From Callorhinchus milii (Eukaryota), in contig NW_024704768.1 in NCBI RefSeq assembly GCF_018977255.1, forward strand, positions 2,790,001 to 2,854,000: a stretch of DNA of 64,000 bases. The letters are read 5' to 3'. The position numbers and the translations under genes are program-made. Positions 7,030 to 43,867 of the stretch are shown here, piece after piece. The notes beneath the pieces were generated by a model. It did not search any database and had not been told where the DNA came from. It worked only from the letters and a program-made list of their open reading frames with translations. Each line of letters starts with the position of its first letter. Positions within the stretch are counted from its first letter, which is position 1.

Positions 7030-7270
7030 AACGCAGCAGCCAATGTTGCCTACAAGCAATCTCCCACCAACAGACATCGAGCAAAGTGAACTGGGACAGC
7101 AAGAGCGAGTGACTCCATTCTCTTTTCAAAGTAGCGCCACGGGATCTTTAATGTCCACCAGATCGGGGCACAGACGAGGAGCTCAGTTCAACATCTCAAC
7201 CCGAAAGGATGGTGCGCCCCCGCCCCCAAGCACTGCACTGGAGTGTCATCCTGGACTGTGAGCTCAAATT
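7030..7270 (-). mobile_element. Deu-domain SINE remnant
   Basis: Reverse complement of the core seen at 688-900 (gggatcttta, tgcactggagtgtca, ctgtgagctcaa). Confidence 0.55.
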
Positions 7271-7289
7271 CCCAATATAGGGAGTTGTA

Positions 7290-7625: not shown

Positions 7626-7669
7626 CTCAGAGCGTTTCGCAACAACGGATCCCGGGGCCGAGCCGGGGG

Positions 7670-11285: not shown

Positions 11286-11846
11286 ATTGATGTGGCGTTG
11301 ATTTCAACTGAAGAAGATCGAGTCAGAGTGGCTATTAGTGGCGACTCTGGGAGCGCTCAGCAGTTTATCAAGCGCACGTGGTATGTGATTCTGTTCTGTG
11401 ATTAAATTGAGGATCAGAGAGAAATTTTAGCAAACTTTGCCCAGGTCACGCGTCACGCGTGTCAGATATGAACAGTTGACTGCCCGGATCATGTACTGTG
11501 ATGATAATAACAATAATAATCCGTGCATTTGATATAGCGCCTTATCACGTCTTCCAGACGTCTCAAAGCGCTTCACAGGATAGACTGTGAAGTGAATTGA
11601 CTGTACCTTTGTGGGCGAAACCTGGCAGCCAATTGCGCACAGCAGCGTTCCCCCCACAAACAGTCGTGGATTGAAGTCACCAAATTGTTATTTAGATAAT
11701 AATAACACTTACATTTGATATAGATCCTTTGGGATTGTACTGTAAAGTAGAATGACTGTGTGTGTGTGTGTGTGTTTGTGCAAAAGTGTGTTCTGCGTCA
11801 AGTTTATCAACATAGTCACAAACAATTGTCTTCGAGCGAATGAAAG

Positions 11847-11852
11847 TTTATT
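11847..11852 (-). terminator. Polyadenylation signal of copy A
   Basis: AATAAA on the minus strand about 450 nt past the stop codon. Confidence 0.65.
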
Positions 11853-12297
11853 GATTGCAAGATGAAATGTGAAGAAAGTTTTCTCTCCGCCCGCACCCGT
11901 TACAAAGGACACAGAATCAAGAACACCAAACAACAGCGGCAAATGTCCCACCGTCGTTGAAGAGGAAACAGCAAATAGAGAGATTCTAAAGCTTGCCCAT
12001 CACACCCAGAACATGTCTTTGCAGTGCCCCGAACTTTCCAACCTTTCCATTTCAGATCGACCCAACACTCAACACCAGCAAGGAGATATCAGATGATTCA
12101 CGTGAATGAATCAATCCCCAATGAGAACTCCTGCACACCCTTTAATCTGACCCACTGCTGAACATGAGACATGGACATTCATTGTTACTCAGAACCAGGA
12201 GACGAAAGTCTCACTCAGACAGACCCTTCAGTGAGCTTTCCGAGAATCAACACCAGCGTAACAGATCGTCGCACGACAGAGCCCTTAAAGCAACCGC

Positions 12298-15200
12298 TTA
12301 ATAAGTGGTTGTTTTGACGTCGGTGGTTTTAATGAGCAAACTCCCCTGTGTGCCTCGGGAGCTTTCCAAGCCACCAATACTACCACTGCTACCGTATTGA
12401 ACGCTGTATCCACCGCTGCTCAAACCACTGCCGCCGCCGCCGCCGCCGCCACCGGACATGAAAGCTAAACTTCCTCCTCCTAGTCCTCCTAAACTGGAGC
12501 CGCCAGCCATTGAACTAAATTGCGACTGTTGTTGGCCTGAAAAGAGAATTAATTCGATGAAATGAATGACGACGATTATGATAATAATAATAATAACAAT
12601 CCCGGCATTTGACACAGCCGCTATGTATCGCGTCTTCGAGACGTCTCAAAGAGCTTCGCAGAACATAGGACATGCCGTAAACCAGACTGACTGCGTCGCT
12701 TGTCGCTAGTCTGTCTGAGAACAATTTAAGAATTTAATAGGAATTGATGGTTTTCTTACCCATTCCTTGGGATGTGTGGATGTTGAGGGTCTGGATGCCG
12801 GTGATAAGCCTGGACATAAAGTAGACATTTATATTAAGACAAGTCCCGAAATGAAGACCAGCGATTGTGCTGTGTTTACCCCCAGAGTCTGGGGATTAAT
12901 GCTGTCGTCCTCCTGTTATAATACAGTCCTTGCGTTCTTAAAATCAACAGTAACGGCACAACACTGCCAGGTCATTAGTCATCACGGATATCATTCCTGT
13001 GTGGTGGCCGCTATGCGCAGGAAGTAACTCCGATGCCAGTTCCTGTGCTGGTGTGCTATGCGCAGCAAGTGTTAAGAATGCCACTTCCTCTTCACTGCTC
13101 ATGTGCCAAATACTGACCAGACAGTGGCACAAGTGCCACAGATCTCTGGGTTCACGATATAGTGCTCCAAGACCCTAACCCGCCGCGAGGGCGCCATATA
13201 AATGCACGTTGTTGTTGTTGCTATAGAGTGACCCACGCCGTATGTTCCAACGACTGTCGTCAGTCTGACTGTTGGTAATTTAGCCACAGGCTTGAGTCGT
13301 GTCTTACCTGTTTTCCTCTCCCTCCAGGAGTTTCCTGTAGGTGGCAATTTCGATGTCCAGAGCCAACTTGACGTTCATCAGTTCCTGGTATTCACGCAAT
13401 TGGCGAGCCATGTCCTGCTTGGCCTTGACAATAGCGGCCTCCAGCTCTGTGATCCGCACCTTGACGTCACGGAGACTTATCTCACCGCGCTCCTCGGCTT
13501 CTGTAATCTCAGCCTCCAGCTTGGCACGCTGGGTGGAATCAAAGAGCAACTTTCAGCCGTCTGACAACAAGGGTCTGAAACCAACAGGGATTTACCCCAT
13601 AATGACAACCGATCCCGCAATAGACTTGTGTTCAGGCTTCACCTACCTGCGCTCTAAGCGCCTCGATATCAGAAGTCAGTCTCTGGATCATCCTGGTCAG
13701 GTCGGTGATCTCAGTCTTTGTTGAGCGAAGATCATCACCGAATTGTCCGGAGCTTGAGGACAGTTCCACCATCTGGAATGTGCAGTAAGTCCGTCAGTTA
13801 CCCTGCGTTTCAGCAGCAGCTGAACAGACCTCAGTATTTGTGGGTTCAGTTTTGTACTTTGTATTCTCCGGTGTCAGTGAGAGAGCCTTCAGCCATTAAT
13901 AGCCCTGTTCTCTGGAACCCCATCCTGGAGTCCCTCGGCCCCCCTTCCCCTCTGTCCCTTTAAAGTCCGCCTGAAGACTTCTCTTCTCAACCATGCTTTT
14001 TGGCCCCTTTCTTGCCCAACTCCCCCCTACCATCCCCGGCTCCATGAAACGCTTTGGGACCCATGTCCTCTCGCTTGGGAGGCGAGTGCTGTGATGGTGA
14101 GCTATGTGCCGGGAGCTCTGCGATGTCACTCCCTGTGATGGAGGGCTGTATATAAATGTACGGTTGTGGGCGTGTGGGTGTACCTTGGCGTTTCTCCACT
14201 CCTCGCACTGCTGTTTGGATCGTTGTGCTTGACGGTCATACTCGGCCTTGACCTCGGCGATAATCTGGTCAACATCCAGGTTGCGGTTGTTGTCTATTTC
14301 CACGGTAACAGATGTATCCTGGATCTGAGCCTGCAGCTCACGGATTTCCTGGAGATTGAAACGGGAAGAGACGTGGGATCAGGAATATTCGAAACACCCG
14401 GTTTAGAAAAAAATCTAACCTTAACTCGGGCCTTTCTGTTCATTTATTAGGTCGGGGAATTAAGGGATATGGGACAAGGGCGGGTGGTTGGAGTTGAGGT
14501 GCAGACCAGCCGTGATCTTATAGAATGGCAGAACAGGCTCAAGGGGCTGAATGTCCGACTCCTGTTTCTACTGTCAGGTGGTAAATCACAGGACACAAGC
14601 AATCATGTCATTAGTACCTCATCAAAGATGTTTCGCAGGAAGTTGATCTCATCGGTGAGACCTTCCAGTTTAGCTTCCAGCTCCACCTTGTTCATGTAAG
14701 ACTCGTCGACATCCTAGCGGAGGACAGAGAGACAGAGGACGTTCTTCAAGAAAAGTTTCAACAAGTTTGTATTTAAAACAGTTAAAACTTGAAAAAAAAA
14801 CCTGATAAAGTTCGGATAAATGGGGCCAACGCTTTACCTTCTTGATCAGGACAAACTCGTTTTCCACCTCGGTACGCTTGTTGATTTCATCTTCATACCT
14901 GTGATGAAACGCAGCATCTTAGTGACTTTACAGGTGGCGCTACAGAGAGCTGTGGTTAATACGATTGATCTGATCTGGATTCCCTGATCCCCGCCTGACC
15001 AGTTGGAACAATTGCTGCGCAGCTCGAGGTGGTGAGAAGTCTTTTGAACCCTGAACTGCAATCGCAAACGTATAACAATCCATGCGTTTGACACGGTGCC
15101 CGATCGCGTCATTGTTTGCGGGGAAAGGAATTGACGGGCAATACAAGGTTTAAAGTTGCCACTCCTACCCCTCCCTGATCCCAACCACCAGATCTGTTAC

Positions 15201-16618
15201 TGTCCAGCGCCTTGGGATAGTCCTCCCCACCCCCGCACACCCCCCCCCCACACGCACACGCACACACACACACACACACACACAGGCACTTACTTGTTCT
15301 TGAAATCCTCAACCAAAGCTTGCATCTGCAGGAGACTGCCCTCTAGGTTCACCTTCTCCTGTCCCAGAGTTTCCAGCTGCCTCTTGAGGTTCTCAATGTA
15401 AGCCTGGAACATGGAGTCGATGTTGGAGGCATAGGTGCCCTGGTTCTGGAGGAATTCCAACTTGGTCTCCAGCATTTTATTGGTCTGTTCCAGCATACGG
15501 ACCTGGGGATTGCAAGGTGGCTTTGTTAACGGGGGCCAGAAAAACAGGGGTCAACAACAACAACTTGCATTTACACAGCGCCCTTCACGCCGGGCGGGGT
15601 CTCGGAGCGCTTAGGAGGTGTCACGGGAAGGAGTGAGATGTGCAGAAAACGAGCTGGGCGGGGGAATGGAGAGATATTGGAATGGGGAAAGGGGAGAGGA
15701 AATTGGGATGAGTTCTCGGCATAGTATATCGAAAATAAGGACAAAATGCAACGTAAGGCAATTCATAAATAAATAGTTACATGACCCCCAAGGGATGGTC
15801 TATTAAGTGCGGCGATGAGAACAGAGTAGAGAGAGAAAGACGAGAATAATAATCCTTGCATTTGATGTATCTCCTTATCATGTCTTTGCTTGCGAGGCGA
15901 GCTCTCTGACCGCTACTCTACGGGAAAATTTTGTCTGCGCTCTCTCCTGAGTCATGTTTCTCCCCTGTTCGAAACTCTATTTGGCGTGTGGGGTGAGGAA
16001 ACGTGCCTAAGGCAAGTAGACAAGATTTGGACATACAGGCAGAGAGTGGGGGGTGTTGTGGGTGGGGTGTCATCAAAAGTGGTTTAAGATGCCATCTGAT
16101 CGATGTGCAGATAAATACCTTATCGATGAAGCTGGCGAAGCGGTTGTTCAGCCCGAGGATCTGGTTCTTCTCCTGCTGCCTTTGGGCTTGGAGAGCGGGG
16201 TCCACTGGGGCGACGGTGGCATTGAGATCCAGGTTGACAGATGACCCAATTCCGATGCCAGTTCCGAAGCTGCCTCCCAAACCTCCATAACCACCTGCGA
16301 AATTACCTCCCGCACTGCTTCCATACATTCCCATCATCCTGCCACCACCGCCACCAGCCATGGAGGAGGAATAGGACATTCGGGATCTCGGCATACTGCC
16401 ACTCATGGACATCGCGCGTCTCCCTCCGCTCACTACTCTTGCTGAGGATCTCCTCATACCACCGCCCAACGCCACGCTGCCGATATTCAGACCACCACCA
16501 TAGTGGAGCAACCACCACCGTAGTTGGAGCTACTACTACCACCGTAGCCACCACCACCACCGTAGCTGGAGCCACTGCTGGTGATCTTGGTGGTCGTGTA
16601 GCTTTTCCTCGTCGACAT
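12298..16618 (-). CDS. Type II keratin (K8-like), copy A; 9 exons; frameshift in exon 1 in this sequence
   Basis: Exons with GT/AG sites: 16618-16119, 15502-15294 (209), 14898-14838 (61), 14713-14618 (96), 14348-14184 (165), 13772-13647 (126), 13528-13308 (221), 12809-12760 (50), 12536-12298. Rod exon sizes are canonical for type II keratins. Motifs [16 protein letters not shown] and [16 protein letters not shown]; Gly/Ser-rich head and tail. Exon 1 is 500 nt (20-nt insertion versus copy C), giving TGA at 16489-16487: pseudogene or 1-bp sequence error. Confidence 0.92.
14452..14572 (+). mobile_element. CR1 3' end fragment in intron 4 (also in B about 22854-22974 and C about 39540-39660)
   Basis: aagggatatggg...gatcttatagaatggcagaacaggctcaaggggctgaatg...ctcctg, a CR1-type 3' UTR. 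Confidence 0.6.
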
Positions 16619-16885
16619 CCTGCAATCTGGGTTTTTTGCTCGAGGAGCGACAGGCGAGAGGAGAGTTAGAAGCAGAAGGTGTCTGTGAGGAGTTGAGCAG
16701 GTGAGGCGCTGCTTTTATCCGCTCTCTCTCCCAGCGCTGGGGCTGGGCCGGGTGTCAGGTAACAAGCGTCTCAATGGAGCAGAGCAGCCAAGGGAGGAGC
16801 CAATGGCCTGACATTGGGATAAGTTCTAACCTGCCCCACACCTGGCCCCGGCCTGTACCCTCAGGGCAGTTTGCAGTCCAAGTCG
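16619..16885 (-). promoter_or_regulatory. 5' UTR and proximal promoter of copy A (shared with B and C)
   Basis: GATAAAA TATA variant (ttttatc 16713-16719), CCAAT near 16800 and GC/GT-box-like runs; block nearly identical upstream of B and C. Confidence 0.55.
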
Positions 16886-17719
16886 ACAGAGTGTATCTAA
16901 GGGATACAAGTCTCCAAACCGGCTCAGCCTCTCAGCACAATTTAAAAAAAAATGTTTTGAACATTGTCTACGCAGCATTTCCAGAGCGCACAGCTTTTCT
17001 TTGGTCAATTCTTTGAGTACGAGGGTTCGTTTCGAAGGCATTTTTGTCTTTTTTCCTGTCTGTAAAGTTTCTTCTAAGAGTTGCAGAGAGAGAAGGAGAG
17101 GGAGAGGGAGAGAGAGAGAGAAAAAAGATGGAAAGTCAAGGCTGAATTCAGCAATTAGCCAAATTCTGGATCTTCTGAGTTGCTATATAACTAGAAAAAG
17201 AATACAATATCTCCCTTAAGAAACATTTATGCAGTAATCGACTTTGAAAAATGTTTTCTCCTCGTAACAAGTATTTAAGTTTCTTATGTCCAACACAGAG
17301 GGGGAAGTTATTCATTTGTAGTTGGCTGTAGCTTTTTTTTTTCCGACAACACTTTCCCCCTCCACATCGAGATGCAACCGTTCACCCACTTCGGGGCTGT
17401 TTGTGGGACGTTGTTGCTTTGCACAGATTTTCGTGGCCGCCTTTGCCCACAAAATACACAGTCACTGTACAGAACCATAGAAGTTGACAGTACAGAAGGA
17501 GGCCATTTGGCCCATCGCACAGGTTCTCAGACCGAGCTGTCGGTTCCATCCCAAGTCGTGTGAAACCTCACCAGACAGCAATAGCGAAGTTAGAAGCAGA
17601 ACTCCATCCACAATCCCTCTGCACCACCCCCTCCGTTGCCTCTTTCAAGACCTGTCTCAAGACCCTCCTCTTCGACCGTGCTTCCTGTCGCACTCCTTAA
17701 CCCACCCCAACCCGCCCTC

Positions 17720-18646
17720 GCCCACCCCAACCACGTCCCTCGCCCCAACCCAGCGGTTGGGGCGAGGGATGTGGTGGGAGGTGTAGCCGGGTGGTGTGGC
17801 CTCTGTGAGGGGGAAGGTGTCGCCGGGGGTGGGCCAGGTTTCCGTTAAGGCCATGATGTCAACGTTCTCATCAAGGATGAGATCGTTGATGACCAGGGCC
17901 TTGTTACAGAGGGAGCAGACGTTTTGTAGTCCAACGTGGAGGGAGCGGTTAACAGAAGGGTGTGTGGGGAGGGAGGGTGTCCAGGTTGTGGGGCAGGGGT
18001 GGGGGGAATGGGGATGAGGGAGGAGAGGTTGGCTCCCCGGGTCTGTGTCCGGGGTGGCTGGCGAGTGTGGTGGGGAATGGGGCGGTCGGGTTGGCTGCTG
18101 CTGGACAGCCAACGCCGAGTGCCACGGTGAGCCCGGCCGGAGGAGGATTCCCCGACTGGAACAGAGGGAGGTTGTGGGAGGGTCAAGTGGGGATAGAAGG
18201 CGAGAGGGACGGAGAGAGAGGAGGACAGAGCGGGAGAGATGCAGAGGGGGGAGGATTTGGGGGGAGAGAGGAGGGATGAGGGAGGGAGGGGGAGAGGGGG
18301 CTCGGTTCAGAGCGGCAGCCATAGTGCGCACGCGGGGACCGGGAGCGAGCGGTCAGGTGGATGGAAACATTATCCCATCGGCCGGGGCAGCCAACCCAAC
18401 AGGACCATGGTGGGCTCTGATGTGAGCCCTGGTGGGGGGGGGGACGCAGATGATTTTTTTTTTTTGTCCGCGCACACTACTGAAAACTAAACTATGACGT
18501 CAGCGGTTCCCCCGTTCTGCCCCCACCCGTTCCCTCCTCAGCCCCAGACCCCCGTGTGGCTGGACTCCCTGCCGCGTCGAGTTTAAATACCTGGGTAGGT
18601 ACGCCCAGGCTCCTCCCCGCGCTGTCCTGCCGCCGCTCCCCGCTAG
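17720..18646 (-). mobile_element. L2 LINE 5' portion (5' region plus start of the APE endonuclease) inserted into an L2 3' remnant
   Basis: LQNVCSLCNKALVINDLILDENVDIMALTETW...EATPPGYTSHHIPRPNR is an APE N-terminus; flanked by a 60-bp direct duplication. Confidence 0.8.
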
Positions 18647-20251
18647 AGACCCTCCTCTTCGACCGTGTTTCCTGTCACACTCCTTAACCCACCCCAACCC
18701 GCCCTCCACCCTCCCCGAACCCGACCGCCAGCTCAGCTCCAAAACACAGATTGTCCAGGGCCTTGGGACGTCCTCCCGATGTGAAAGATGCTGTACAAAG
18801 GGAATGTTGTTGTTGTTGTTGTCACCTTTCCCGACTTTGGCTCAATAGCTTGGTCTGACATCTCTTTTCAGAATCATTTGCCACCCTCCATCATGTAATA
18901 ATATAATACATTAATGATAATATTAAAAGATAATTTAGTCGCTGAATCCACGGCTGTCTGTGGGGACGCTGCTGTGCGCAATTGGCTGCCGCGTTTCGCC
19001 CACAAAGTACAAAGTCAATTCGCTTTACAGTGTAGAGTGTGAAGCGCTTTGAGACGTCTCGAAGACATGATAAGGCGGGGTATCGAACGCAAGGATTGTT
19101 ATTACTTTTAAGAGATCACTGACACGATTGAGAGGGGACCTGGTGCCGCTACATTTCTGAAAGGTGGAAATTGATGTTTGGATTAAGGTGGACGTTGATG
19201 AGCATAGGCACAGTCAAAGAGGTAGGTCATCAAGTTCGATTAAAAGAGAAAGAGGGGATGTGGCGGAGGAGGGATTGAGGCAGGAAGTTCCAGAGGTTAG
19301 GAGCATCGTGGAAATATAAATCGAGCTAAATTAAAATGGCCAGACTGACTGAGTCTTGGAAGATAACATGCATCAACAATAATAAGTTACATTTACACAG
19401 CGACTTCCAGGCTTGGAGGACATTCCAAGGCACTGGAAAGTCAGGGGTTCAGACCGGAGCAGCAGGAGGGTTGGAATCAGGTGCGGTCAAGGGCAGGGAG
19501 AGTGACCAAAGGCCCGATTGAAGAGGACGGTCTTGAGACGGGCCTCGAAGGAGGCGAGGGAGGGAGCAAGCAGAAGGGACTGTGGGATGGAGTTCCAGAG
19601 GGTGGGGCCTGAAGGCCCAACCACCAATTGTGGAGTGGGCCGGGCGGGGGACGTGGAGCAGGCCGGAGGCTGCTGAGCAGAGGGAGCGGACAATTGATGT
19701 GGCGTTGATTTCAACTGAAGAAGATCGAGTCAGAGTGGCTATTAGTGGCGACTCTGGGAGTGCTCAGCAGTTTATTAAGCGCACGTGGTATGTGATTCTG
19801 TTCTGTGATTAAATTGAGGATCAGAGAGAAATTTCAGCAAACTTTGCCCAGGTCACGCGTCACGCGTGTCAGATATGAACAGTTGACTGCACGGATCATG
19901 TACTGTGATGATAATAACAATAATAAACCTTGCATTTGATATAGCGCCTTATCACGTCTTCCAGACGTCTCAAAGCGCTTCACAGGATACACTGTGAAGT
20001 GAATTGACTATACCTTTGTGGGCGAAACCTGGCAGCCAATTGCGCACAGCAGCGTTCCCCCCACAAACAGTCGTGGATTCAAGTCACCAAATTGTTATTT
20101 AGATAATAATAACTTACATTTGATATAGATCCTTTGGGATTGTACTGTAAAGTAGAATGACTGTGTGTGTGTGTGTGTGTTTGTGCAAAAGTGTGTTCTG
20201 CGTCAAGTTTATCAACATAGTCACAAACAATTGTCTTCGAGCGAATGAAAG

Positions 20252-20257
20252 TTTATT
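20252..20257 (-). terminator. Polyadenylation signal of copy B
   Basis: Homologous AATAAA on the minus strand. Confidence 0.62.
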
Positions 20258-20702
20258 GATTGCAAGATGAAATGTGAAGAAAGTTTTCTCTCCGCCCGCA
20301 CCCGTTACAAAGGACACAGAATCAAGAACACCAAACAACAGCGGCAAATGTCCCACCGTCGTTGAAGAGGAAACAGCAAATAGAGAGATTCTAAAGCTTG
20401 CCCATCACACCCAGAACATGTCTTTGCAGTGCCCCGAACTTTCCAACCTTTCCATTTCAGATCGACCCAACACTCAACACCAGCAAGGAGATATCAGATG
20501 ATTCACGTGAATGAATCAATCCCCAATGAGAACTCCTGCACACCCTTTAATCTGACCCACTGCTGAACATGAGACATGGACATTCATTGTTACTCAGAAC
20601 CAGGAGACGAAAGTCTCACTCAGACAGACCCTTCAGTGAGCTTTCCGAGAATCAACACCAGCGTAACAGATCGTCGCACGACAGAGCCCTTAAAGCAACC
20701 GC

Positions 20703-23700
20703 TTAATAAGTGGTTGTTTTGACGTCGGTGGTTTTAATGAGCAAACTCCCCTGTGTGCCTCGGGAGCTTTCCAAGCCACCAATACTACCACTGCTACCGT
20801 ATTGAACGCTGTATCCACCGCTGCTCAAACCACTGCCGCCGCCGCCGCCGCCGCCACCGGACATGAAAGCTAAACTTCCTCCTCCTAGTCCTCCTAAACT
20901 GGAGCCGCCAGCCATTGAACTAAATTGCGACTGTTGTTGGCCTGAAAAGAGAATTAATTCGATGAAATGAATGACGACGATTATGATAATAATAATAATA
21001 ACAATCCCGGCATTTGACACAGCCGCTATGTATCGCGTCTTCGAGACGTCTCAAAGAGCTTCGCAGAACATAGGACATGCCGTAAACCAGACTGACTGCG
21101 TCGCTTGTCGCTAGTCTGTCTGAGAACAATTTAAGAATTTAATAGGAATTGATGGTTTTCTTACCCATTCCTTGGGATGTGTGGATGTTGAGGGTCTGGA
21201 TGCCGGTGATAAGCCTGGACATAAAGTAGACATTTATATTAAGACAAGTCCCGAAATGAAGACCAGCGATTGTGCTGTGTTTACCCCCAGAGTCTGGGGA
21301 TTAATGCTGTCGTCCTCCTGTTATAATACAGTCCTTGCGTTCTTAAAATCAACAGTAACGGCACAACACTGCCAGGTCATTAGTCATCACGGATATCATT
21401 CCTGTGTGGTGGCCGCTATGCGCAGGAAGTAACTCCGATGCCAGTTCCTGTGCTGGTGTGCTATGCGCAGCAAGTGTTAAGAATGCCACTTCCTCTTCAC
21501 TGCTCATGTGCCAAATACTGACCAGACAGTGGCACAAGTGCCACAGATCTCTGGGTTCACGATATAGTGCTCCAAGACCCTAACCCGCCGCGAGGGCGCC
21601 ATATAAATGCACGTTGTTGTTGTTGCTATAGAGTGACCCACGCCGTATGTTCCAACGACTGTCGTCAGTCTGACTGTTGGTAATTTAGCCACAGGCTTGA
21701 GTCGTGTCTTACCTGTTTCCTCTCCCTCCAGGAGTTTCCTGTAGGTGGCAATTTCGATGTCCAGAGCCAACTTGACGTTCATCAGTTCCTGGTATTCACG
21801 CAATTGGCGAGCCATGTCCTGCTTGGCCTTGACAATAGCGGCCTCCAGCTCTGTGATCCGCACCTTGACGTCACGGAGACTTATCTCACCGCGCTCCTCG
21901 GCTTCTGTAATCTCAGCCTCCAGCTTGGCACGCTGGGTGGAATCAAAGAGCAACTTTCAGCCGTCTGACAACAAGGGTCTGAAACCAACAGGGATTTACC
22001 CCATAATGACAACCGATCCCGCAATAGACTTGTGTTCAGGCTTCACCTACCTGCGCTCTAAGCGCCTCGATATCAGAAGTCAGTCTCTGGATCATCCTGG
22101 TCAGGTCGGTGATCTCAGTCTTTGTTGAGCGAAGATCATCACCGAATTGTCCGGAGCTTGAGGACAGTTCCACCATCTGGAATGTGCAGGAAGTCCGTCA
22201 GTTACCCTGCGTTTCAGCAGCAGCTGAACAGACCTCAGTATTTGTGGGTTCAGTTTTGTACTTTGTATTCTCCGGTGTCAGTGAGAGAGCCTTCAGCCAT
22301 TAATAGCCCTGTTCTCTGGAACCCCATCCTGGAGTCCCTCGGCCCCCCTTCCCCTCTGTCCCTTTAAAGTCCGCCTGAAGACTTCTCTTCTCAACCATGC
22401 TTTTTGGCCCCTTTCTTGCCCAACTCCCCCTACCATCCCCGGCTCCATGAAACGCTTTGGGACCCATGTCCTCTCGCTTGGGAGGCGAGTGCTGTGATGG
22501 TGAGCTATGTGCCGGGAGCTCTGCGATGTCACTCCCTGTGATGGAGGGCTGTATATAAATGTACGGTTGTGGGCGTGTGGGTGTACCTTGGCGTTTCTCC
22601 ACTCCTCGCACTGCTGTTTGGATCGTTGTGCTTGACGGTCATACTCGGCCTTGACCTCGGCGATAATCTGGTCAACATCCAGGTTGCGGTTGTTGTCTAT
22701 TTCCACGGTAACAGATGTATCCTGGATCTGAGCCTGCAGCTCACGGATTTCCTGGAGATTGAAACGGGAAGAGACGTGGGATCAGGAATATTCGAAACAC
22801 CCGTTTAGAAAAAAATCTAACCTTAACTCGGGCCTTTCTGTTCATTTATTAGGTCGGGGAATTAAGGGATATGGGACAAGGGCGGGTGGTTGGAGTTGAG
22901 GTGCAGACCAGCCGTGATCTTATAGAATGGCAGAACAGGCTCAAGGGGCTGAATGTCCGACTCCTGTTTCTACTGTCAGGTGGTAAATCACAGGACACAA
23001 GCAATCATGTCATTAGTACCTCATCAAAGATGTTTCGCAGGAAGTTGATCTCATCGGTGAGACCTTCCAGTTTAGCTTCCAGCTCCACCTTGTTCATGTA
23101 AGACTCGTCGACATCCTAGCGGAGGACAGAGAGACAGAGGACGTTCTTCAAGAAAAGTTTCAACAAGTTTGTATTTAAAACAGTTAAAACTTGAAAAAAA
23201 AACCTGATAAAGTTCGGATAAATGGGGCCAACGCTTTACCTTCTTGATCAGGACAAACTCGTTTTCCACCTCGGTACGCTTGTTGATTTCATCTTCATAC
23301 CTGTGATGAAACGCAGCATCTTAGTGACTTTACAGGTGGCGCTACAGAGAGCTGTGGTTAATACGATTGATCTGATCTGGATTCCCTGATCCCCGCCTGA
23401 CCAGTTGGAACAATTGCTGCGCAGCTCGAGGTGGTGAGAAGTCTTTTGAACCCTGAACTGCAATCGCAAACGTATAACAATCCATGCGTTTGCACGGTGC
23501 CCGATCGCGTCATTGTTTGCGGGGAAAGGAATTGACGGGCAATACAAGGTTTAAAGTTGCCACTCCTACCCCTCCCTGATCCCAACCACCAGATCTGTTA
23601 CTGTCCAGCGCCTTGGGATAGTCCTCCCCACCCCCGCACACCCCCCGCCCACACGCACACGCACACACACACACACACACACACAGGCACTTACTTGTTC

Positions 23701-24999
23701 TTGAAATCCTCAACCAAAGCTTGCATCTGCAGGAGACTGCCCTCTAGGTTCACCTTCTCCTGTCCCAGAGTTTCCAGCTGCCTCTTGAGGTTCTCAATGT
23801 AAGCCTGGAACATGGAGTCGATGTTGGAGGCATAGGTGCCCTGGTTCTGGAGGAATTCCAACTTGGTCTCCAGCATTTTATTGGTCTGTTCCAGCATACG
23901 GACCTGGGGATTGCAAGGTGGCTTTGTTAACGGGGGCCAGAAAAACAGGGGTCAACAACAACAACTTGCATTTACACAGCGCCCTTCACGCCGGGCGGGG
24001 TCTCGGAGCGCTTAGGAGGTGTCACGGGAAGGAGTGAGATGTGCAGAAAACGAGCTGGGCGGGGGGAATGGAGAGATATTGGAATGGGGAAAGGGGAGAG
24101 GAAATTGGGATGAGTTCTCGGCATAGTATATCGAAAATAAGGACAAAATGCAACGTAAGGCAATTCATAAATAAATAGTTACATGACCCCCAAGGGATGG
24201 TCTATTAAGTGCGGCGATGAGAACAGAGTAGAGAGAGAAAGACGAGAATAATAATCCTTGCATTTGATGTATCTCCTTATCATGTCTTTGCTTGCGAGGC
24301 GAGCTCTCTGACCGCTACTCTACGGGAAAATTTTGTCTGCGCTCTCTCCTGAGTCATGTTTCTCCCCTGTTCGAAACTCTATTTGGCGTGTGGGGTGAGG
24401 AAACGTGCCTAAGGCAAGTAGACAAGATTTGGACATACAGGCAGAGAGTGGGGGGTGTTGTGGGTGGGGTGTCATCAAAAGTGGTTTAAGATGCCATCTG
24501 ATCGATGTGCAGATAAATACCTTATCGATGAAGCTGGCGAAGCGGTTGTTCAGCCCGAGGATCTGGTTCTTCTCCTGCTGCCTTTGGGCTTGGAGAGCGG
24601 GGTCCACTGGGGCGACGGTGGCATTGAGATCCAGGTTGACAGATGACCCAATTCCGATGCCAGTTCCGAAGCTGCCTCCCAAACCTCCATAACCACCTGC
24701 GAAATTACCTCCCGCACTGCTTCCATACATTCCCATCATCCTGCCACCACCGCCACCAGCCATGGAGGAGGAATAGGACATTCGGGATCTCGGCATACTG
24801 CCACTCATGGACATCGCGCGTCTCCCTCCGCTCACTACTCTTGCTGAGGATCTCCTCATACCACCGCCCAACGCCACGCTGCCGATATTCAGACCACCAC
24901 CGTAGTTGGAGCTACTACTACCACCGTAGCTACCACCACCACCGTAGCTGGAGCCACTGCTGGTGATCTTGGTGGTCGTGTAGCTTTCCTCGTCGACAT
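20703..24999 (-). CDS. Type II keratin (K8-like), copy B, tandem duplicate of A; two 1-bp deletions in coding exons
   Basis: Exons: 24999-24521 (479), 23903-23695, 23300-23240, 23115-23020, 22751-22587, 22176-22051, 21932-21713 (220), 21214-21165, 20941-20703. Almost base-identical to A at an offset of about 8.4 kb. Exons 1 and 7 are each 1 nt short of frame: pseudogene or consensus error. Confidence 0.88.
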
Positions 25000-25266
25000 C
25001 CTGCAATCTGGGTTTTTTGCTCGAGGAGCGACAGGCGAGAGGAGAGTTAGAAGCAGAAGGTGTCTGTGAGGAGTTGAGCAGGTGAGGCGCTGCTTTTATC
25101 CGCTCTCTCTCCCAGCGCTGGGGCTGGGCCGGGTGTCAGGTAACAAGCGTCTCAATGGAGCAGAGCAGCCAAGGGAGGAGCCAATGGCCTGACATTGGGA
25201 TAAGTTCTAACCTGCCCCACACCTGGCCCCGGCCTGTACCCTCAGGGCAGTTTGCAGTCCAAGTCG
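25000..25266 (-). promoter_or_regulatory. 5' UTR and proximal promoter of copy B
   Basis: Same block as copy A; GATAAAA at 25100-25094. Confidence 0.5.
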
Positions 25267-27509
25267 ACAGAGTGTATCTAAGGGATACAAGTCTCCAAAC
25301 CGGCTCAGCCTCTCAGCACAATTTTTAAAAAAATGTTTTGAACATTGTCTACGCAGCATTTCCAGAGCGCACAGCTTTTCTTTGGTCAATTCTTTGAGTA
25401 CGAGGGTTCGTTTCGAAGGCATTTTTGCCTTTTTTCCTGTCTGTAAAGTTTCTTCTAAGAGTTGCAGAGAGAGAAGGAGAGGGAGAGGGAGAGAGAGAGA
25501 GAAAAAAGATGGAAAGTCAAGGCTGAATTCAGCAATTAGCTCTTGATCGAAACCCAGAACCCTCTTTCAATCACCTTCCTTTGCGCAGAGCATTCCAAGT
25601 CCCTCCAACTCTCTTTGAGTGAAAACATTTCTCCCCTTAAACTCTCCTTTTGCTCTTCTTGTGACCGTCTCTGTTTCCCCAACCAGTGGAAATAGCTTCT
25701 CCCTATTTCCACTGTCAACACCCCTCATCATTGTGTTCCCCAACCCCCCCCCACCCCCTCTAGGGGGTCACCCCTCGTTCTTCTCTGCTTCAGTGAGAAA
25801 CACAACAGCCGGCTTCTCCTCAACACTATTGGTTTTGAGAGGTTTTGGACAGTGCGATAAGGTTTGCTGTATCACATGCAGGGTTTGTTATCAGCTCTGC
25901 AGCACGCAAGGGGTTAAACCCCCCCCCCCCCCGACACCTTTTGGGATCCCATTTTGGGCGCGGCCTTTTTTTTTTGCGCCAAGTTGCATTTTTTTGTTGC
26001 GTCTTCAAACCGGGAGCTGAGTGGGGGGGAAAAAAAAACTCTTTCTTGTCGTGTTTGCAGTCGGAGAGTTTTCAAACTCAAAAGTGCTGAGCAGAGGGTG
26101 TGGGTAAGAGAGACTTTGCATCATGTCCACTCTTGCAAAATGTCTTCCCACCGCCCACCTTCTGTTCTCTCCTCGTTCATACACCACATCGACTTCCTCC
26201 GTTTACCCGGCAGTCAGTCGGAAGCCGGTGGTTAGTCGATTGGCGGATCGCTTTTCCGGGGGTAATAATCCCCTCCAAAAAAAAAATGGTTAAAGGAATT
26301 TGTGGTCATTCAATCCACGACTGTTTGTGGGGGACGCTGCTGTGCGCAATTGGCTGCCGCGTTGATGACCGGTGAATGATCAATTCTATATTTGGGGAAC
26401 TGTTGGCCGAAACACCGGGAGAAAACTAGGAGAAAGGCAGACGGGATCTCCCATAAAATATTTCACCCACAGAATATGCAGTCAATTCGCTTTACAGTAT
26501 ATTCTGTGAAGCGCTTTGAGATGACTCGAAGATGTGATAAGGCGCTGTATCAAACGCAAGGATTGTTATTATTATTTATTATTACTATTCCTTCAGCCAT
26601 CGGATCTGTGTTGATTGGCGAGGACGCAGTGCGCGCGAATGCCCTGTCGCTAAAATCCCCGAAAGCACATCGTACATGTGGTTCGCTCTGCCTCAGATAG
26701 CAGAGAGCGAGTCTGTTGTCTTGAGGTGGTGTGGTGGGGGGGGGCGCGTGGCGTGGGGGTCGGGATGGGGGGGGGGTCGGAAGGAGAGGCACACCACCTT
26801 GACGACGGGAGAGACTTCACGGGTGCGAAGGGAAAGACTTTTACTTTTGAGAAGAAAAAGTTTGTCAAAAGTTCCTATTGAAAAACTACATTCGCTGAAG
26901 AAGCGGAGAGGGAGTGGGTGGGTGGGTGGTGGTGGGGTGCGGGCAGGGCAGGGGGGAGAGGGGGAGTACGGGGGGTGGGGGGGAGGGGGGGGAGAGAGCG
27001 AGGGGTGTGGGAGAGCGAGTCCCAGGGAAGCGTTTGCTGACTCTGGTCAGAATTCTTCTCCGAGGCTTAAACGCCACGCCTATGGAGCGTGGGCGCGGTT
27101 CGAATACCTTGCAGACTGGTTGGTTGCACAGCAGATCTGCTTGCCTTGTAGTTTTGTGAAGGTGAGAAGTGTCTGGTTCTGGGAGGGGCGGTGAGATGCT
27201 GTGATTGCACCCGCCTGGAATGCACCATTACCTCACCCCACCTTGGCCCGGTCTGGTCTGGCCTCCGGCACTCCACCCACCTCCTCCCCCTCTTCACTCC
27301 GCTGTGCGAAAAATCCGGCTGCCGAGTTCGCCCACAAGACACACACTTTCGCTGCACTTTACAGCAGCGACAGCACATTGCATCCGGGTAGCGCCTCTTA
27401 CGCCTTGTAGCGCCCCTCAGTCCCTAATCGCTACCCCCCCCCCCACCCCCACCCCACCCCCCCACCCCGCAACTTATCAGATCTATTCACCCAGTGAGTC
27501 TGTTATAGG

Positions 27510-34474: not shown

Positions 34475-35033
34475 CCTGTCTTCGAGACGTTTCAAAGTGT
34501 TTCACAGAATATACTGTAAATTGAATTGACTGCATAATTTGTGGGCAAAACAGGGCAGTCAATTGCGCACAGCGGTGTCCCATGAACTTAAACAGTGGTT
34601 GATTGAGTAAGCAAATTAGTTTTATTTGCCTTGAAGGATTTATTACCCCCTGGAAAAGCGATCCGCCATTCGACTAAAAACCGGGTTCCTAATTACTGCT
34701 GGGTAAACAATAATAATAATAATAATCCTTGCATTTGATATAGCATTTTTCACGTCGGGAGGACGTCCCAAAACGCTTCACAGAACACACTGTAAAGTGA
34801 ATTGACTGTATATTTGTGGGCGAACGCGGCGGCCAATTGCGCACAGCGATGTCCCACAAACAGTCGTGGATTGAAAATGACCAATTTATTATTGTTTTTG
34901 GTTTTGGAGCGATTATTATTAGGCTCTGTGTGGAGTAAGGAAACTTGCCCAAGGTTTCGCCCTCTGCCTGGGACTCGAACCCAGGTCCTCTCACTTGCGA
35001 GGCGAGTGCTCTCACCAATGAGCTACAAGACTC
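34475..35033 (-). mobile_element. Adjacent SINEs: truncated long subfamily (about 34475-34708) and full short subfamily (34709-35033)
   Basis: Direct similarity to other SINE copies in the window. Confidence 0.8.
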
Positions 35034-36967: not shown

Positions 36968-39900
36968 TTAGGACCTCAGCTCTGTCATGGTCTCGGATGT
37001 CTTGATTCCGTCCTGTGATTCAATGGTCTTGACGATCACCTTCTTGCTGGTCGACACACCGTAGCCTCCGGACATCATCCCCCCGTAGCCTCCGGATGAG
37101 CCGGACGTCAATGAGGAGCTCTCCATCTGGAAGGCACCTCCTCCATAGCCGCCTCCCAGGCTGGAGCCGTTGGCCATTCCACCAAAGTGTGACTGCTGCT
37201 GGCCTGGAAACGGAGAACGCAGCAAAAGGGAATTGTTTCAAACCTCCATCTCTTTCTTTTGGGGTCAGCCGGATGCCGGACACATGCAAGAAACCCATCC
37301 CAGTGCTTAAGAGTTTCCAAACCAAACTGAGAATTCCACACATAGAAACAGGAGGAGGCCATTCAGCCCCTCGTACCTGTTCCGCCAGTCATGACTGATC
37401 TGTGCCTCAAGTCCAATTACCCGCCCTTGCCCCTTATCCCATAATACCCTGACCCAACAAATATCTATCCACCTCCGTCTTGAAGATGTGAATGGATCCA
37501 GACACAATCCACAGCCTTTTGGGGGAGAGAGTTCTACACATGGAAATGATTCCAGAGATAGGCTGTTGGAATGGATTGTAGTCTCGCTCTCTCTCACTGG
37601 AGGGACACATCCTGCTTACCTAATTCTGGAAAGTATTAGGCACAGGTTGGCAAGAGCCAACGCTTTTCCTTGCAGGGTTAACAGGAGCCGAGTGGGAAGA
37701 ATCCCCGGCCCCAGTCATTATTGACCCACAAAATAAGTAAAATAATAAGTGGTTGATCGATGCAAAGAAGCCTAAACATCCTTTTCTCCTGATCACGAGA
37801 GAGTCTGAGATCTTAATAGGAATTGACGGTTTTCTTACCCATTCCTTGGGATGTGTGGATGTTGAGGGTCTGGATGCCGGTGATAAGCCTGGACATAAAG
37901 TAGACATTTATATTAAGAAAGTCCCGAAATGAAGACCAGCGATTGTGCTGTGTTTACCCCCAGAGTCTGGTGATTAATGCTGTCGTCCTCCTGTTATAAT
38001 ACAGTCCTTGCGTTCTTAAAATCAACAGTAACGGCACAACACTGCCAGGTCATTAGTCATCACGGATATCATTCCTGTGTGGTGGCCGCTATGCGCAGGA
38101 AGTAACTCCGATGCCAGTTCCTGTGCTGGTGTGCTATGCGCAGCAAGTGTTAAGAATGCCGCTTCCTCTTCACTGCTCATGTGCCAAATACTGACCAGAC
38201 AGTGGCACAAGTGCCACAGATCTCTGGTATACAATGGGTTCACGATATAGTGCTCCAAGACCCTAACCCGCCGCGAGGGCGCCATATAAATGCACGTTGT
38301 TGTTGTTGCTATAGAGTGACCCACGCTGTATGTTCCAACGACTGTCGTCAGTCTGACTGTTGGTAATTTAGCCACAGGCTTGAGTCGTGTCTTACCTGTC
38401 TTCCTCTCCCTCCAGGAGTTTCCTGTAGGTGGCAATTTCGATGTCCAGAGCCAACTTGACGTTCATCAGTTCCTGGTATTCACGCAATTGGCGAGCCATG
38501 TCCTGCTTGGCCTTGACAATAGCGGCCTCCAGCTCTGTGATCCGCACCTTGACGTCACGGAGACTTATCTCACCGCGCTCCTCGGCTTCTGTAATCTCAG
38601 CCTCCAGCTTGGCACGCTGGGTGGAATCAAAGAGCAACTTTCAGCCGTCTGACAACAAGGGTCTGAAACCAACAGGGATTTACCCCATAATGACAACCGA
38701 TCCCGCAATAGACTTGTGTTCAGGCTTCACCTACCTGCGCTCTAAGCGCCTCGATATCAGAAGTCAGTCTCTGGATCATCCTGGTCAGGTCGGTGATCTC
38801 AGTCTTTGTTGAGCGAAGATCATCACCGAATTGTCCGGAGCTTGAGGACAGTTCCACCATCTGGAATGTGCAGGAAGTCCGTCAGTTACCCTGCGTTTCA
38901 GCAGCAGCTGAACAGACCTCAGTATTTGTGGGTTCAGTTTTGTACTTTGTATTCTCCGGTGTCAGTGAGAGAGCCTTCAGCCATTAATAGCCCTGTTCTC
39001 TGGAACCCCATCCTGGAGTCCCTCGGCCCCCCTTCCCCTCTGTCCCTTTAAAGTCCGCCTGAAGACTTCTCTTCTCAACCATGCTTTTTGGCCCCTTTCT
39101 TGCCCAACTCCCCCCCACCATCCCCGGCTCCATGAAACGCTTTGGGACCCATGTCCTCTCGCTTGGGAGGCGAGTGCTGTGATGGTGAGCTATGTGCCGG
39201 GAGCTCTGCGATGTCACTCCCTGTGATGGAGGGCTGTATATAAATGTACGGTTGTGGGCGTGTGGGTGTACCTTGGCGTTTCTCCACTCCTCGCACTGCT
39301 GTTTGGATCGTTGTGCTTGACGGTCATACTCGGCCTTGACCTCGGCGATAATCTGGTCAACATCCAGGTTGCGGTTGTTGTCCATTTCCACGGTAACAGA
39401 TGTATCCTGGATCTGAGCCTGCAGCTCACGGATTTCCTGGAGATTGAAACGGGAAGAGACGTGGGATCAGGAATATTCGAAACACCCGCTTTAGNAAAAA
39501 ATCTAACCTTAACTCGGGCCTTTCTGTTCATTTATTAGGTCGGGGAATTAAGGGATATGGGACAAGGGCGGGTGGTTGGAGTTGAGGTGCAGACCAGCCG
39601 CGATCTTATAGAATGGCAGAACAGGCTCAAGGGGCTGAATGTCCGACTCCTGTTTCTACTGTCAGGTGGTAAATCACAGGACACAAGCAATCATGTCATT
39701 AGTACCTCATCAAAGATGTTTCGCAGGAAGTTGATCTCATCGGTGAGACCTTCCAGTTTAGCTTCCAGCTCCACCTTGTTCATGTAAGACTCGTCGACAT
39801 CCTAGCGGAGGACAGAGAGACAGAGGACGTTCTTCAAGAAAAGTTTTTAACAAGTTTATATTTAAAGTAGTTCAGATAAATGGACCTCACGATTTACCTT

Positions 39901-41411
39901 CTTGATCAGGACAAACTCGTTTTCCATTTCGGTACGCTTGTTGATTTCATCTTCATACCTGTGACCAAACGAGCATTTTATTGACAGTGGCTTTATAGAA
40001 ACACGTCGTCAATATGATTGATCTATTCATAATTGTTATTAACCCCACGTCTGTGTAGCGGGGGTGGGCGGGGGGGAAGTTTAACCAGTTTACTTACTTG
40101 TTCTTGAAATCCTCAACCATAGATTGCATCTGCAGGAGACTGCCCTCTAGGTTCACCTTCTCCTGTCCCAGAGTTTCCAGCTGCCTCTTGAGGTTCTCAA
40201 TGTAAGCCTGGAACATGGAGTCGATGTTGGAGGCGTAGGTGCCCTGGTTCTGGAGGAATTCCAACTTGGTCTCCAGCATTTTATTGGTCTGTTCCAGCAT
40301 ACGGACCTGGGGATTGCAAGGTGGCTTTGTTAACGGGGGCCAGAAAAACAGGGGTCAACAACAACAACTTGCATTTACACAGCGCCCTTCACGCCGGGCG
40401 GGGTCTCGGAGCGCTTAGGAGGTGTCACGGGAAGGAGTGAGATGTGCAGAAAACGAGCTGGGCGGGGGGAATGGAGAGATATTGGAATGGGGAAAGGGGA
40501 GAGGAAATTGGGATGAGTTCTCGGCATAGTATATCGAAAATAAGGACAAAATGCAACGTAAGGCAATTCATAAATAAATAGTTACATGACCCCCAAGGGA
40601 TGGTCTATTAAGTGCGGCGATGAGAACAGAGTAGAGAGAGAAAGACGAGAATAATAATCCTTGCATTTGATGTATCTCCTTATCATGTCTTTGCTTGCGA
40701 GGCGAGCTCTCTGACCGCTACTCTACGGGAAAATTTTGTCTGCGCTCTCTCCTGAGTCATGTTTCTCCCCTGTTTCGAAACTCTATTTGGCGTGTGGGGT
40801 GAGGAAACTTGCTTAAGGTTTCACCCAAGTAGACAAGGTTTGGACGTACAGGCAGAGAGTGGGGGGTGTTGTGGGTGGGGTGTCATCAAAAGTGGTTTAA
40901 GATGCCATCTGATCGATGTGCAGATAAATACCTTATCGATGAAGCTGGCGAAGCGGTTGTTCAGCCCGAGGATCTGGTTCTTCTCCTGCTGCCTTTGGGC
41001 TTGGAGAGCGGGGTCCACTGGGGCGACGGTGGCATTGAGATCCAGGTTGACAGATGACCCAATTCCGATGCCAGTTCCGAAGCTGCCTCCCAAACCTCCA
41101 TAACCACCTGCGAAATTACCTCCCGCACTGCTTCCATACATTCCCATCATCCTGCCACCACCGCCACCAGCCATGGAGGAGGAATAGGACATTCGGCTTC
41201 TCGATGGACTGCCAATCAGGGACATCGCGCGTCTCCCTCCGCTCACTACTCTTGCTGAGGATCTCCTCATACCACCGCCCAACGCCACGCTGCCGATATT
41301 CAGACCACCACCGTAGTTGGAGCTACTACTACCACCGTAGCTACCACCACCACCGTAGCTGGAGCCACTGCTGGTGATCTTGGTGGTCGTGTAGCCTTTC
41401 CTCGTCGACAT
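36968..41411 (-). CDS. Type II keratin (K8-like), copy C; intact, 547 aa
   Basis: Exons: 41411-40932 (480), 40306-40098 (209), 39958-39898 (61), 39801-39706 (96), 39436-39272 (165), 38860-38735 (126), 38616-38396 (221), 37888-37839 (50), 37203-36968 (236); total 1644 nt in frame. Starts MSTRKGY. Tail ends [25 protein letters not shown], resembling the K8 VVKKIETRDGK motif. Confidence 0.95.
37341..37535 (-). mobile_element. CR1 3' fragment in intron 8 of copy C
   Basis: catagaaacaggaggaggccattcagcccctcg...cagccttttgggggagagagttc; homologous to 29610-29820. Confidence 0.7.
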
Positions 41412-41677
41412 CCTGCAATCTGGATTTTTTGCTCGAGGAGCGACAGGCGAGAGGAGAGTTAGAAGCAGAAGGTGTCTGTGAGGAGTTGAGCAGGTGCGGC
41501 GCTGCTTTTATCCGCTCTCTCTCCCAGCGCTGGGGCTGGGCCGGGTGTCAGGTAACAAGCGTCTCAATGGAGCAGAGCAGCCAAGGGAGGAGCCAATGGC
41601 CTGACATTGGGATAAGTTCTCACCTGCCCCACACCTGGCCCCGGCCTGTATCCTCAGGGCAGTTTGCAGTCCAAGTC
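41412..41677 (-). promoter_or_regulatory. 5' UTR and proximal promoter of copy C
   Basis: Same block as A/B; GATAAAA at 41512-41506; homology ends at ...gcagtccaagtc. Confidence 0.55.
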
Positions 41678-43542
41678 ACTCACTTAACTAAGCTTCCCAA
41701 CTGCACTCACATTACTTCAAACCTAATCGTAAAAGACCAGGACAAACCAACAAAGCAGAAGCACAAGGAAAAGCCATTTTTTTAAATATTCTGAAGTGGG
41801 TAAATTTGACCAATGACCCTGACAATCTGTGGCATTGCCCACAAAGGACCAGGCAATCTTTTCTTTTCATTATTGTTATTATTATTATTTAGGGCAAAAT
41901 TGTGCTCCAAAAATCATTTGGCATCGACAGACGGAAAACCCTTCAGCATCGTTGCTGATTGCTTCCAAATACAACTTGACTCGATGTTTTGCTAAAAGTC
42001 TCAACAGCAACAACAACAACAACAACAAGATTACATGTGTACAGCGCTTTCACGTCGGGAGGACATCCCAAGGCGCTGGACGGTGTACAGCATTTTAGAC
42101 CCGAGGCTGGGGTCAGGGGGGAGAAGGGAGGGGAGGGGAAGGGGGGGGGTGACCGATGGCACGGTCGAAGAGGAGGGTTTTGAGGCGGGACTTGAAGGAG
42201 GTTTTCCTCAAAGTGCTTCACAGGGTTTGCACCTTATAATAATAATATTAATAATCCTTGCACTTGACGTAGCGCCTTATCACCTCTTTGAGGCATCTCA
42301 AAGCCAGCCTCGTGCTTTGAGGGTGAAGACAGCAGCCAGTTTGCAAGCAAACATCCCACAAACAGCCATGGATTGAATGACCAATTTTACTGGGGCGGCT
42401 GGCGGGATTATTAGCCAGAGCCCCGGGGAGAGGAAAAAGCTCCCAAGCACGAGAAACATCACTTATCTATTTATTTTCCCTTCTGCCTTTTCACGCAGCA
42501 TTCGGGTCTGAGCGCATGAGGCTGCAGGGTATAAGGGGTTAACCCCAGCTGCTCAGCCGCACCCTTTGCTGTAGTCAGCAGAGCCAACGATTCACTGGGC
42601 AAAAATGCAATTTTTTTTTTCATACGCACTGGAACAAGCAAAAAAACTGAGGCAGAAAATGCCTTTTATTCTTTTTCACAAAAAAAAGAGACGAAAAAAT
42701 AAGTTCAAATCACCGTTTTTTCACATTTTCCCAAAAGAAACTGCTGTCGGGGAAACTTTTTTTTTCGCTTTGCAAAACTCCAGACGGTAATATTTATGCC
42801 CGGTATTATTTATTTACCCCCACACCCACCCATACACACACACACACACACACACACACTCATCTCTTTCCCCCCCCAACCCTAAAAAAGTCCCCTGTTG
42901 ACTTTCACCCACTCGTTCCTCTTTAAATTCACGGTCACTACACTTTACAGTTAAAAAAAAATGATCCCGCGTGATGTTTCGACTGCGAGTGGTGAGGGGG
43001 TGTCAAGTGGAAGGGTTATTATTTATCATGAATGCGTTCGGTTTGATTTAATCGGCGAAAAAAAACAAAAAACAGTGCTCCAAAGATCTTTCGGCTTCAA
43101 TAGGGTTCTCTTTCAATCATTGAGAGGGAGAGGGGTGAGAGGGGTGAGAGGGAGACGGTGGGGGAAGAGGAGCAGCTGCTGATTTTTAGTGGGTGTCTTT
43201 GCCCCGTTCCCACCACCCGGAGGATTGTATTGACACATCTCTCCGCTCTAAGGGGAAGGTATCGCTGAGACGCTTGTTGGTTTTGGATTGTCTGTCACTG
43301 CTGATCGATGCAAAGACCCGCCCGGCTTCTGCTTATGCAAAGCAGGGAGCCGCGGCTCTGAGGGAGCGGCCGAAAAGGTTACCACACTCGCAAAGAATGT
43401 GTCTCGCAGTCTGCCTGAAAGTGGTTCATCCGAGACCCACATAGAAGAAGTGTGTTTGCTTCCCAGCCGCTCGGCTCTGTGCGCTTGTTTGTTTGCCCGG
43501 CCGGGGTGTCCGACCCACTGGGAAACCCATCACCGTCGCTGT

Positions 43543-43867
43543 GGGGTCCTGTAGCTCAGTGGTCGGAGCGCTCGCTTTGCAAGCGAGAGACCTGGGTTCA
43601 ATTCCAGGCAGAGGGCGAAACCTCGGGCAAGTTTCCTTACTCCACACAGAGCCTAATAATAATCCCTCCAAAACCAAAAACAATAATAAATTGGTCATTT
43701 TCAATCCACGACTGTTTGTGGGACATCGCTGTGCGCAATCGGCCGCTGCGTTCGCCCACAAATATACAGTCGATTCACTTTACAGTGTGTTCTGTGAAGC
43801 GCTTTGGGACGTCCTCCCGACGTGAAAAGCGCTATATCAAATGCACAAATTATTATTATTATTATTA
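43543..43867 (+). mobile_element. Full-length tRNA(Ala-like)-derived SINE, short subfamily
   Basis: ggggtcctgtagctcagtggtcggagcgctcgctttgcaagcg...gggttcaattcc; L2-like tail and (TTA)n. Confidence 0.88.

Follow-up and report, generated by a model that had tools for sequence, protein, structure and literature searches.

The type II keratin genes of the window

The window, the whole 64,000-nt stretch of Callorhinchus milii (elephant shark) DNA that was analysed, contains three type II (krt8-like) keratin genes, A, B and C, all on the minus strand. It also holds gene D, a type II keratin less closely related to them, and one type I keratin gene. The features needed to follow the comparison, in window coordinates, are:

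11075–17159: the A copy of a 6.1-kb A/B block, whose counterpart, the B copy, lies at 19482-25540
12298–16618, minus strand: keratin gene A (CDS 16618-12298), nine exons with GT-AG introns and a frame-shifting 20-nt insertion in exon 1
17160–19481: the A-B spacer, with remnants at 17631-17728 and 18647-18846 that are colinear with the A 3' flank (10847-11075) at 93-96% identity
20703–24999, minus strand: keratin gene B (CDS 24999-20703), nine exons with GT-AG introns and two 1-nt frameshifts, near 24984 and 21716
36968–41411, minus strand: keratin gene C (CDS 41411-36968), nine exons with GT-AG introns and one terminal stop
About 51.4–58.8 kb, minus strand: gene D, a more distant type II keratin upstream of C, with roughly 30-80% identity to C by exon
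59.3–63.3 kb, plus strand: a type I keratin, head-to-head with D

One more type II keratin gene lies just outside the start of the window (L001).

Gene C has an intact reading frame, and its 547-aa product is identical to a C. milii database protein named krt8 (listed as P0003). The protein carries the Pfam Filament domain at residues 142-453 (362 bits), an intermediate-filament rod framed by a glycine/serine-rich head and tail. Nine exons are the norm for type II keratin genes, and the nearest relatives of C are type II keratins: a search with the full-length protein returned 117 matches, of which the named ones were mostly type II keratins, krt8 or ON3. When exon 1 of C was used as a genome query, it retrieved three copies only, namely those of A, B and C. 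The layout of the window fits elephant shark keratin cluster 2, for which the relevant passages of 10.1101/2020.05.06.063123 describe several type II genes and one type I gene, krt18, positioned head-to-head with krt8; the comparable pair in the window is formed by gene D and the type I gene. The words 'conversion' and 'concerted' do not occur in the main text of that report, supplements aside.

Shared tracts and diverged segments of gene C

Compared with A and B, gene C resolves into two near-identical tracts with diverged DNA between and beyond them, and two short islands of difference lie inside the first tract:

40092–41677, minus strand: shared tract 1, comprising 266 nt of promoter/5' UTR, exon 1, intron 1 and exon 2; it matches B 23689-25265 and A 15288-16884
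41197–41219, minus strand: exon 1 island, with 8 differences in 23 nt
40809–40846, minus strand: intron 1 island, with 4 substitutions and a 7-nt indel
39847–40091, minus strand: diverged middle segment, comprising intron 2, exon 3 and the donor half of intron 3
37813–39846, minus strand: shared tract 2, which opens with the acceptor half of intron 3 and ends 26 nt into intron 8; its counterparts are B 21139-23160 and the equivalent part of A 12734-14971, and the assembly has one N in it
36968–37812, minus strand: private 3' end of C, comprising the rest of intron 8 and exon 9 (the tail)

Within tract 1, identity between C and A/B was 98.5% for the 266 nt of promoter, 97.9-98.3% for exon 1, 99.4% for intron 1 and 98.6% for exon 2; with the islands and the edge of exon 2 set aside, 1491 sites contained 6 differences. 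For tract 2, a pairwise alignment of 2021 columns contained 7 substitutions and 5 indels, with exons 4-8 at 99.4-100% and introns 4-7 at 99.3-100%. Outside the islands, the two tracts are equally diverged, at 0.40% each. The middle segment, by comparison, is at least 15% diverged, the exact count varying with the aligner (36 substitutions and 18 gaps in 243 columns pairwise, exon 3 included; 64 of 244 with MAFFT). Here, intron 2 measures 139 nt in C versus 394-395 nt in A/B, intron 3 measures 96 versus 124 nt with its differences confined to the donor half, and exon 3 is identical at 59 of 61 positions. At the 3' end, intron 8 (635 nt in C versus 223 nt in A/B) reached a local score of 23, where the best of 200 shuffles reached 31, and exon 9 aligned over its first 67 nt only (78%; score 59 versus 32, above all 200 shuffles). 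For the flanks, compared over 1 kb on each side, the scores likewise stayed below the best of 50 shuffles, with 23 versus 31 at the 3' and 30 versus 34 at the 5' side; a 47-nt likeness upstream of C and B was rejected, as its score fell within the shuffle range. The earlier note, made from the sequence alone, had described this pattern correctly. It had placed near-identity over the promoter, exon 1, most of intron 1 and exon 2 (now 41677-40092, with features at 97.9-99.4%), divergence in intron 2 and the donor half of intron 3, renewed identity from about 39845 down to about 37812 (now bordered at 39846 and 37813, and including the intron 3 acceptor half and exon 4), a loss of alignment in intron 8 and the 3' UTR, and divergence in most of exon 9.

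The differences between C and A/B are clustered, and the identity tracts exceed chance, also at non-coding sites. In the MAFFT alignment, 14 of 2252 non-coding sites differ within the tracts versus 62 of 183 between them (Fisher p = 1e-60), and the longest identical run, at 507 nt, was matched in none of 10000 permutations. Such likeness could in principle be kept by purifying selection, and the constraint on the rod domain, which to our knowledge holds in all keratins, would favour this explanation. But coding sites show no greater likeness than introns and synonymous sites, and exon 3, for all its constraint, has a lower identity than the introns of the adjoining tracts. Moreover, the tract introns include dispersed-repeat fragments (28, 6, 15 and 5 matches for introns 1, 4, 5 and 7, respectively), and selection is therefore unlikely to hold them at 99% likeness. 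Accordingly, we give purifying selection next to no credence as the cause of the tracts.

Neither of the two islands in tract 1 had been mentioned in the earlier note. The clustering of differences in the exon 1 island was matched in 0 of 10000 permutations; the island changes head-domain residues 65, 66, 69 and 70, adds one two-base synonymous serine change and gives C a serine-proline motif that is absent from A/B. As the intron 1 island demonstrates, such islands can also survive in non-coding DNA. Both forms of each island occur in contigs of independent sequencing runs, described below. Local template switching was considered as an origin and dropped, as a search within 400 nt gave no repeat of at least 8 nt at the exon 1 island and one 8-mer each at the intron 1 island.

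The tract boundaries, which the earlier note had called sharp, are of two kinds. Those in the promoter and in intron 8 are indeed sharp, whereas those around exon 2, intron 2 and intron 3 are graded, with exon 3 at 97% and the 3' end of intron 2 at 77%, above all 200 shuffles. The graded borders suggest that the tracts are of several ages. Two sharp outer borders with unrelated flanks are also what one would expect if C were a chimera of unequal crossing-over, that is, a recent copy of A/B running from its promoter through exon 8 and fused to an older paralog's tail, with more crossovers to account for the middle segment. The equal divergence of tracts 1 and 2 would fit a single event of this kind, and the A/B block shows that copy gain occurs in the cluster. 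However, one crossover makes one border, so the borders, at least four in number, and the two islands rule out a single crossover; at least four crossovers within 4 kb would be required, with the islands of 23 and 38 nt still to be added, and double crossovers at such close spacing are conversion in effect. A genome search also found no parent gene with the private intron 2 or exon 9 of C. Overall, we consider a crossing-over chimera unlikely.

The private segments of C could, alternatively, have come from elsewhere, with C being a recent full duplicate of A/B that took up its diverged segments from a third gene. The last part of C exon 9 is similar to the D tail (77% across 64 nt, scoring 50 against 28 for the best shuffle), and B exon 9 is without this likeness (18 versus 34). 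Yet the stretch in question encodes a tail motif that is also found in frog and fish K8-type matches, so conservation explains the resemblance, and the searches made gave no donor for intron 2, intron 8 or either flank. The best genome match of the middle segment is A/B itself (82%), and the C exon 9 region is single in the genome apart from repeat matches of 35-42 nt. In genome searches that scored the best candidates only, no third donor for the private segments was found, and traces of old homology to A/B persist in the private segments at the 3' end of intron 2 and the 5' end of exon 9. On this evidence, the diverged segments of C and A/B probably descend from one old duplication. Import from a third gene thus appears highly improbable.

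Searches for a close ortholog pair in other species, run with full-length C, the A-type tail and B exon 9, found none. Among the 117 matches to full-length C, one came from the own cluster of C. milii and the rest had about 70% identity or less, one of them a named shark protein. The tail of this shark protein gave similar weak scores against both tails, and it therefore cannot date or polarise the divergence. The A-type tail protein matched only the own cluster of C. milii, and the one weak match of B exon 9 in a representative library came without a matched stretch and was set aside.

Independent sequencing runs, copy number and the A/B block

We compared C, and the spacer plus B, with Logan contigs of four DNA runs (X1-X4; four samples of one study) and of one run from another study (X5), which was treated as RNA since introns are skipped in it. 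Contigs of up to 1.25 kb followed the tract introns with few differences (0-4 other letters in the long contigs), at 2.4-2.6 times single-copy depth in three DNA runs and 2.9 times in X4. The upstream border of C was bridged by contigs of X1 and X2 (41591-41995), and its exon 2/intron 2 border by a contig of X2 (39935-40153, 0 other letters); these are the two of four C borders bridged by at least 31 letters among the contigs listed. In the same set, no contig bridged the C-side borders 39846 and 37813 by at least 31 letters and none spanned a whole tract. In X5, the shared exon 8 was spliced to the own exon 9 of C. The mosaic is hence present in the organism, as seen in contigs of the four DNA runs and the RNA-like run.

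These contigs bear directly on the possibility that the tracts are an assembly artefact, caused by mis-mapped reads, polishing or misjoins. Signs of a mixed-read consensus do exist: B is a base short at three positions that distinguish A from C, the frameshifts of A and B are absent from the run contigs, and tract 2 has the N noted above. Against an artefact stand the depth and accuracy with which long contigs follow the tract introns, the bridged upstream and exon 2/intron 2 borders and the splice junction in X5. Furthermore, polishing would be unable to make 99% matches from unalignable introns, and among the 12 database proteins of C. milii that were considered, others join the shared rod to each tail. 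We consequently judge an assembly artefact to be very unlikely for the tracts of C. Homogenisation by polishing is possible chiefly between A and B, where the faults at A/C difference sites are such as a mixed-read consensus would cause, so that the 99.9% identity inside the A/B block may be slightly inflated. Some of the 12 database proteins combine heads, rods and tails in mixed ways; this is compatible with conversion, but such proteins could be assembly chimeras, and we left them out of the evidence for recombinants.

The frameshifts in B look like assembly errors, given that the single bases missing near 24984 and 21716 were present at both places in contigs of all four DNA runs. Similarly, exon 1 of A probably has an in-frame insertion of 21 nt that the assembly renders wrongly as 20 nt; the 21-nt form was seen in one of the four runs (X4). 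The gene models of A and B are accordingly flagged as damaged by assembly errors.

Mean contig depth, which is not strictly copy number, stood at 0.39 : 0.66 : 1 for single-copy, A+B and A+B+C segments (13, 11 and 21 contigs, respectively). This tally used 45 of 56 DNA-run rows among the longest contigs listed, the other 11 rows being repeated contigs. An initial two-copy reading, based on a tract depth about twice that of C-specific DNA, was dropped, as the A-B spacer has single-copy depth and A+B segments are intermediate. Three copies, A, B and C, are likely present, although the A+B depth ratio in X2 was only 1.34.

The A/B block is itself layered. A and B share 93-97% identity at the 3' edge of the block and 99.9% inside, with 17 substitutions in the first 633 nt versus 6 across the other 5.4 kb (Fisher p = 1e-12). 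Together with the 93-96% colinear remnants beyond the block, this layering suggests an older duplication that was overwritten later, and because of the contrast between edge and interior, the exchange process proposed for A/B with C has probably acted between A and B as well. The border between spacer and B block was bridged by contigs of X1, X3 and X4 (19048-19531).

Probable gene conversion between old tandem paralogs

We consider it probable that A/B and C arose long ago by tandem duplication and that interlocus gene conversion continues to transfer DNA between them. The proposal of the earlier note, that old paralogs were repeatedly homogenised by ectopic conversion, is supported by the mosaic, the identical introns with their repeat fragments, the unique flanks, the run contigs and the searches that found no third donor. 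The A/B-C duplication would be old because intron 8 and the flanks are unalignable. According to this model, a break in one copy would be repaired on a neighbour copy 8-25 kb away, where long homology remains, and such non-reciprocal recombination could continue wherever long homology persists. The large indels in introns 2 and 8, together with the unrelated flanks, would stop pairing and set the borders, and exon 3, located between two diverged intron ends, would rarely be converted. The outcome would be two proteins with a shared promoter, head and rod and with different tails. The borders do adjoin the large length differences of introns 2, 3 and 8 given above, which seems in line with large indels ending pairing, as discussed for other genes in the relevant part of PMC3924837.

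The exchange between A/B and C is likely recent. In single-copy DNA, the run contigs differed from the window at 17 of 6058 nt (0.28%; 13 contigs), and the tract divergence of 0.40% is near this allelic level of about 0.3%, which points to recent last exchanges. The window's B and C were also compared at 16 sites or blocks that tell them apart; of 61 run-by-site cells, 33 showed the C form in the main contig, which is unphased and collapses copies. For fixed 2:1 differences, the C form would be expected in 4-10% of cells. The excess hints at variants shared between copies, on the assumption that the assembler keeps the deeper path; two copies at 1:1 would give the same result. Sites at tract edges (B 21153, 23717, 23720, 25209 and 25239), the repeat site 22915, the B-only gap 22426 and one ambiguous cell were left out of this tally, in which the sites scored 0 of 3 have data without X4.

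Interlocus gene conversion is a textbook process. In keratins, concerted evolution has been described for the mammalian K6a/b/c, K81/83/86 and K31/33a/33b/34 groups (PMC4195889, PMC5540548), where, as here, tandem paralogs are more alike than their age predicts and conversion or unequal crossing-over is invoked. The mammalian cases were inferred from species trees, and the passages concerned give no intron-level tract map, whereas the elephant shark genes provide base-level tracts and no species tree. A comparable model is the 'peak of divergence' of the red/green opsins (PMC3924837), in which introns are homogenised, narrow diverged segments are kept and large indels end pairing; it also expects shared polymorphism. 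The diverged opsin exon has proven functional sites, whereas in the elephant shark keratins mainly two introns and the tail exon are diverged. Discrete conversion zones in old tandem duplicates of cartilaginous fish are likewise reported in the relevant passages on shark scpp/sparc-L (PMC9122587), but there with trees of converted and unconverted segments over several species, and for a gene family and lineage different from the Callorhinchus keratins. Near-identical introns or abrupt borders are further shared with the long-lasting segmental conversion of BMP8A/B, DDX19A/B and TUBG1/2 (PMC2720389) and with KRTAP1 (10.1101/282418). The former have ages of over 100 million years, obtained from orthologs, and in KRTAP1 the borders coincide with the start and stop codons, in contrast to the promoter and intron borders of the Callorhinchus genes.

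Conversion is thus known as a process and in mammalian keratins. Our literature search, with subscription papers and bioRxiv supplements outside its scope, found no report of conversion among elephant shark keratins. The passages concerned in PMC2764143 report little conversion in the elephant shark protocadherin cluster, and the keratin genes add a base-level example of conversion tracts in this lineage. For comparative work, trees built on the rod make the A/B-C split look very recent, which affects gene counts and ages of keratins in cartilaginous fishes. As a tentative extension, which we hold to be possible though on balance doubtful, conversion may be ongoing while selection blocks it at the tail exon and at the 23-nt head island, such that one promoter and rod would be combined with head and tail modules that differ between the genes. 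Candidates for functional study are the exon 1 island and the private tails.

Stepped homology between genes A and B

When window positions 10847-11707 are compared with 17631-20112, the homology between the copies that carry the krt8-like type II keratin genes A and B rises stepwise: a part at 93-96%, interrupted by two large insertions, gives way to one at 97% and finally to one at 99.9%. This pattern suggests that A and B have a second, layered history of conversion. Within the A-B spacer, an insert of about 0.9 kb (17729-18646) has a short repeat segment on either side (17660-17732 and 18647-18721), the two copies being 92% identical.

Reading-frame faults and database proteins

The frameshifts and 1-nt gaps of gene B, at window positions 24984, 21716, 22803 and 22426, were absent from the short-read (Logan) run contigs, as was the frame fault in gene A (16511-16530). 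These errors seem to have given rise to two database models, P0002 (437 aa, with an altered C-terminus) and P0004 (501 aa, with a short N-terminus). Two further database keratins, P0001 and P0010, carry a head variant at residues 24-32 that is found in none of the window copies A, B and C, and which would represent either another allele or an unassembled copy.

Neighbouring keratin genes and a dispersed repeat

The following features accompany these genes.

L001 (DNA just before the window) 3402-7636, plus strand: additional type II keratin gene, directly before the window and oriented towards A
Window 51.4-58.8 kb, minus strand: type II keratin gene D, head-to-head with the type I gene
Window 59.3-63.3 kb, plus strand: type I keratin gene, head-to-head with D
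Window 9302-9627, 34709-35033 and 43540-43866: 325-nt repeat, present three times

The gene before the window shares 42-65% identity with C, depending on the exon, and the tail end of D resembles that of C. D and its type I partner have the same layout as the krt8/krt18 pair described for elephant shark cluster 2 (10.1101/2020.05.06.063123). The copies of the 325-nt repeat are 93-94% identical, and this repeat is apparently younger than the window's other dispersed repeats.
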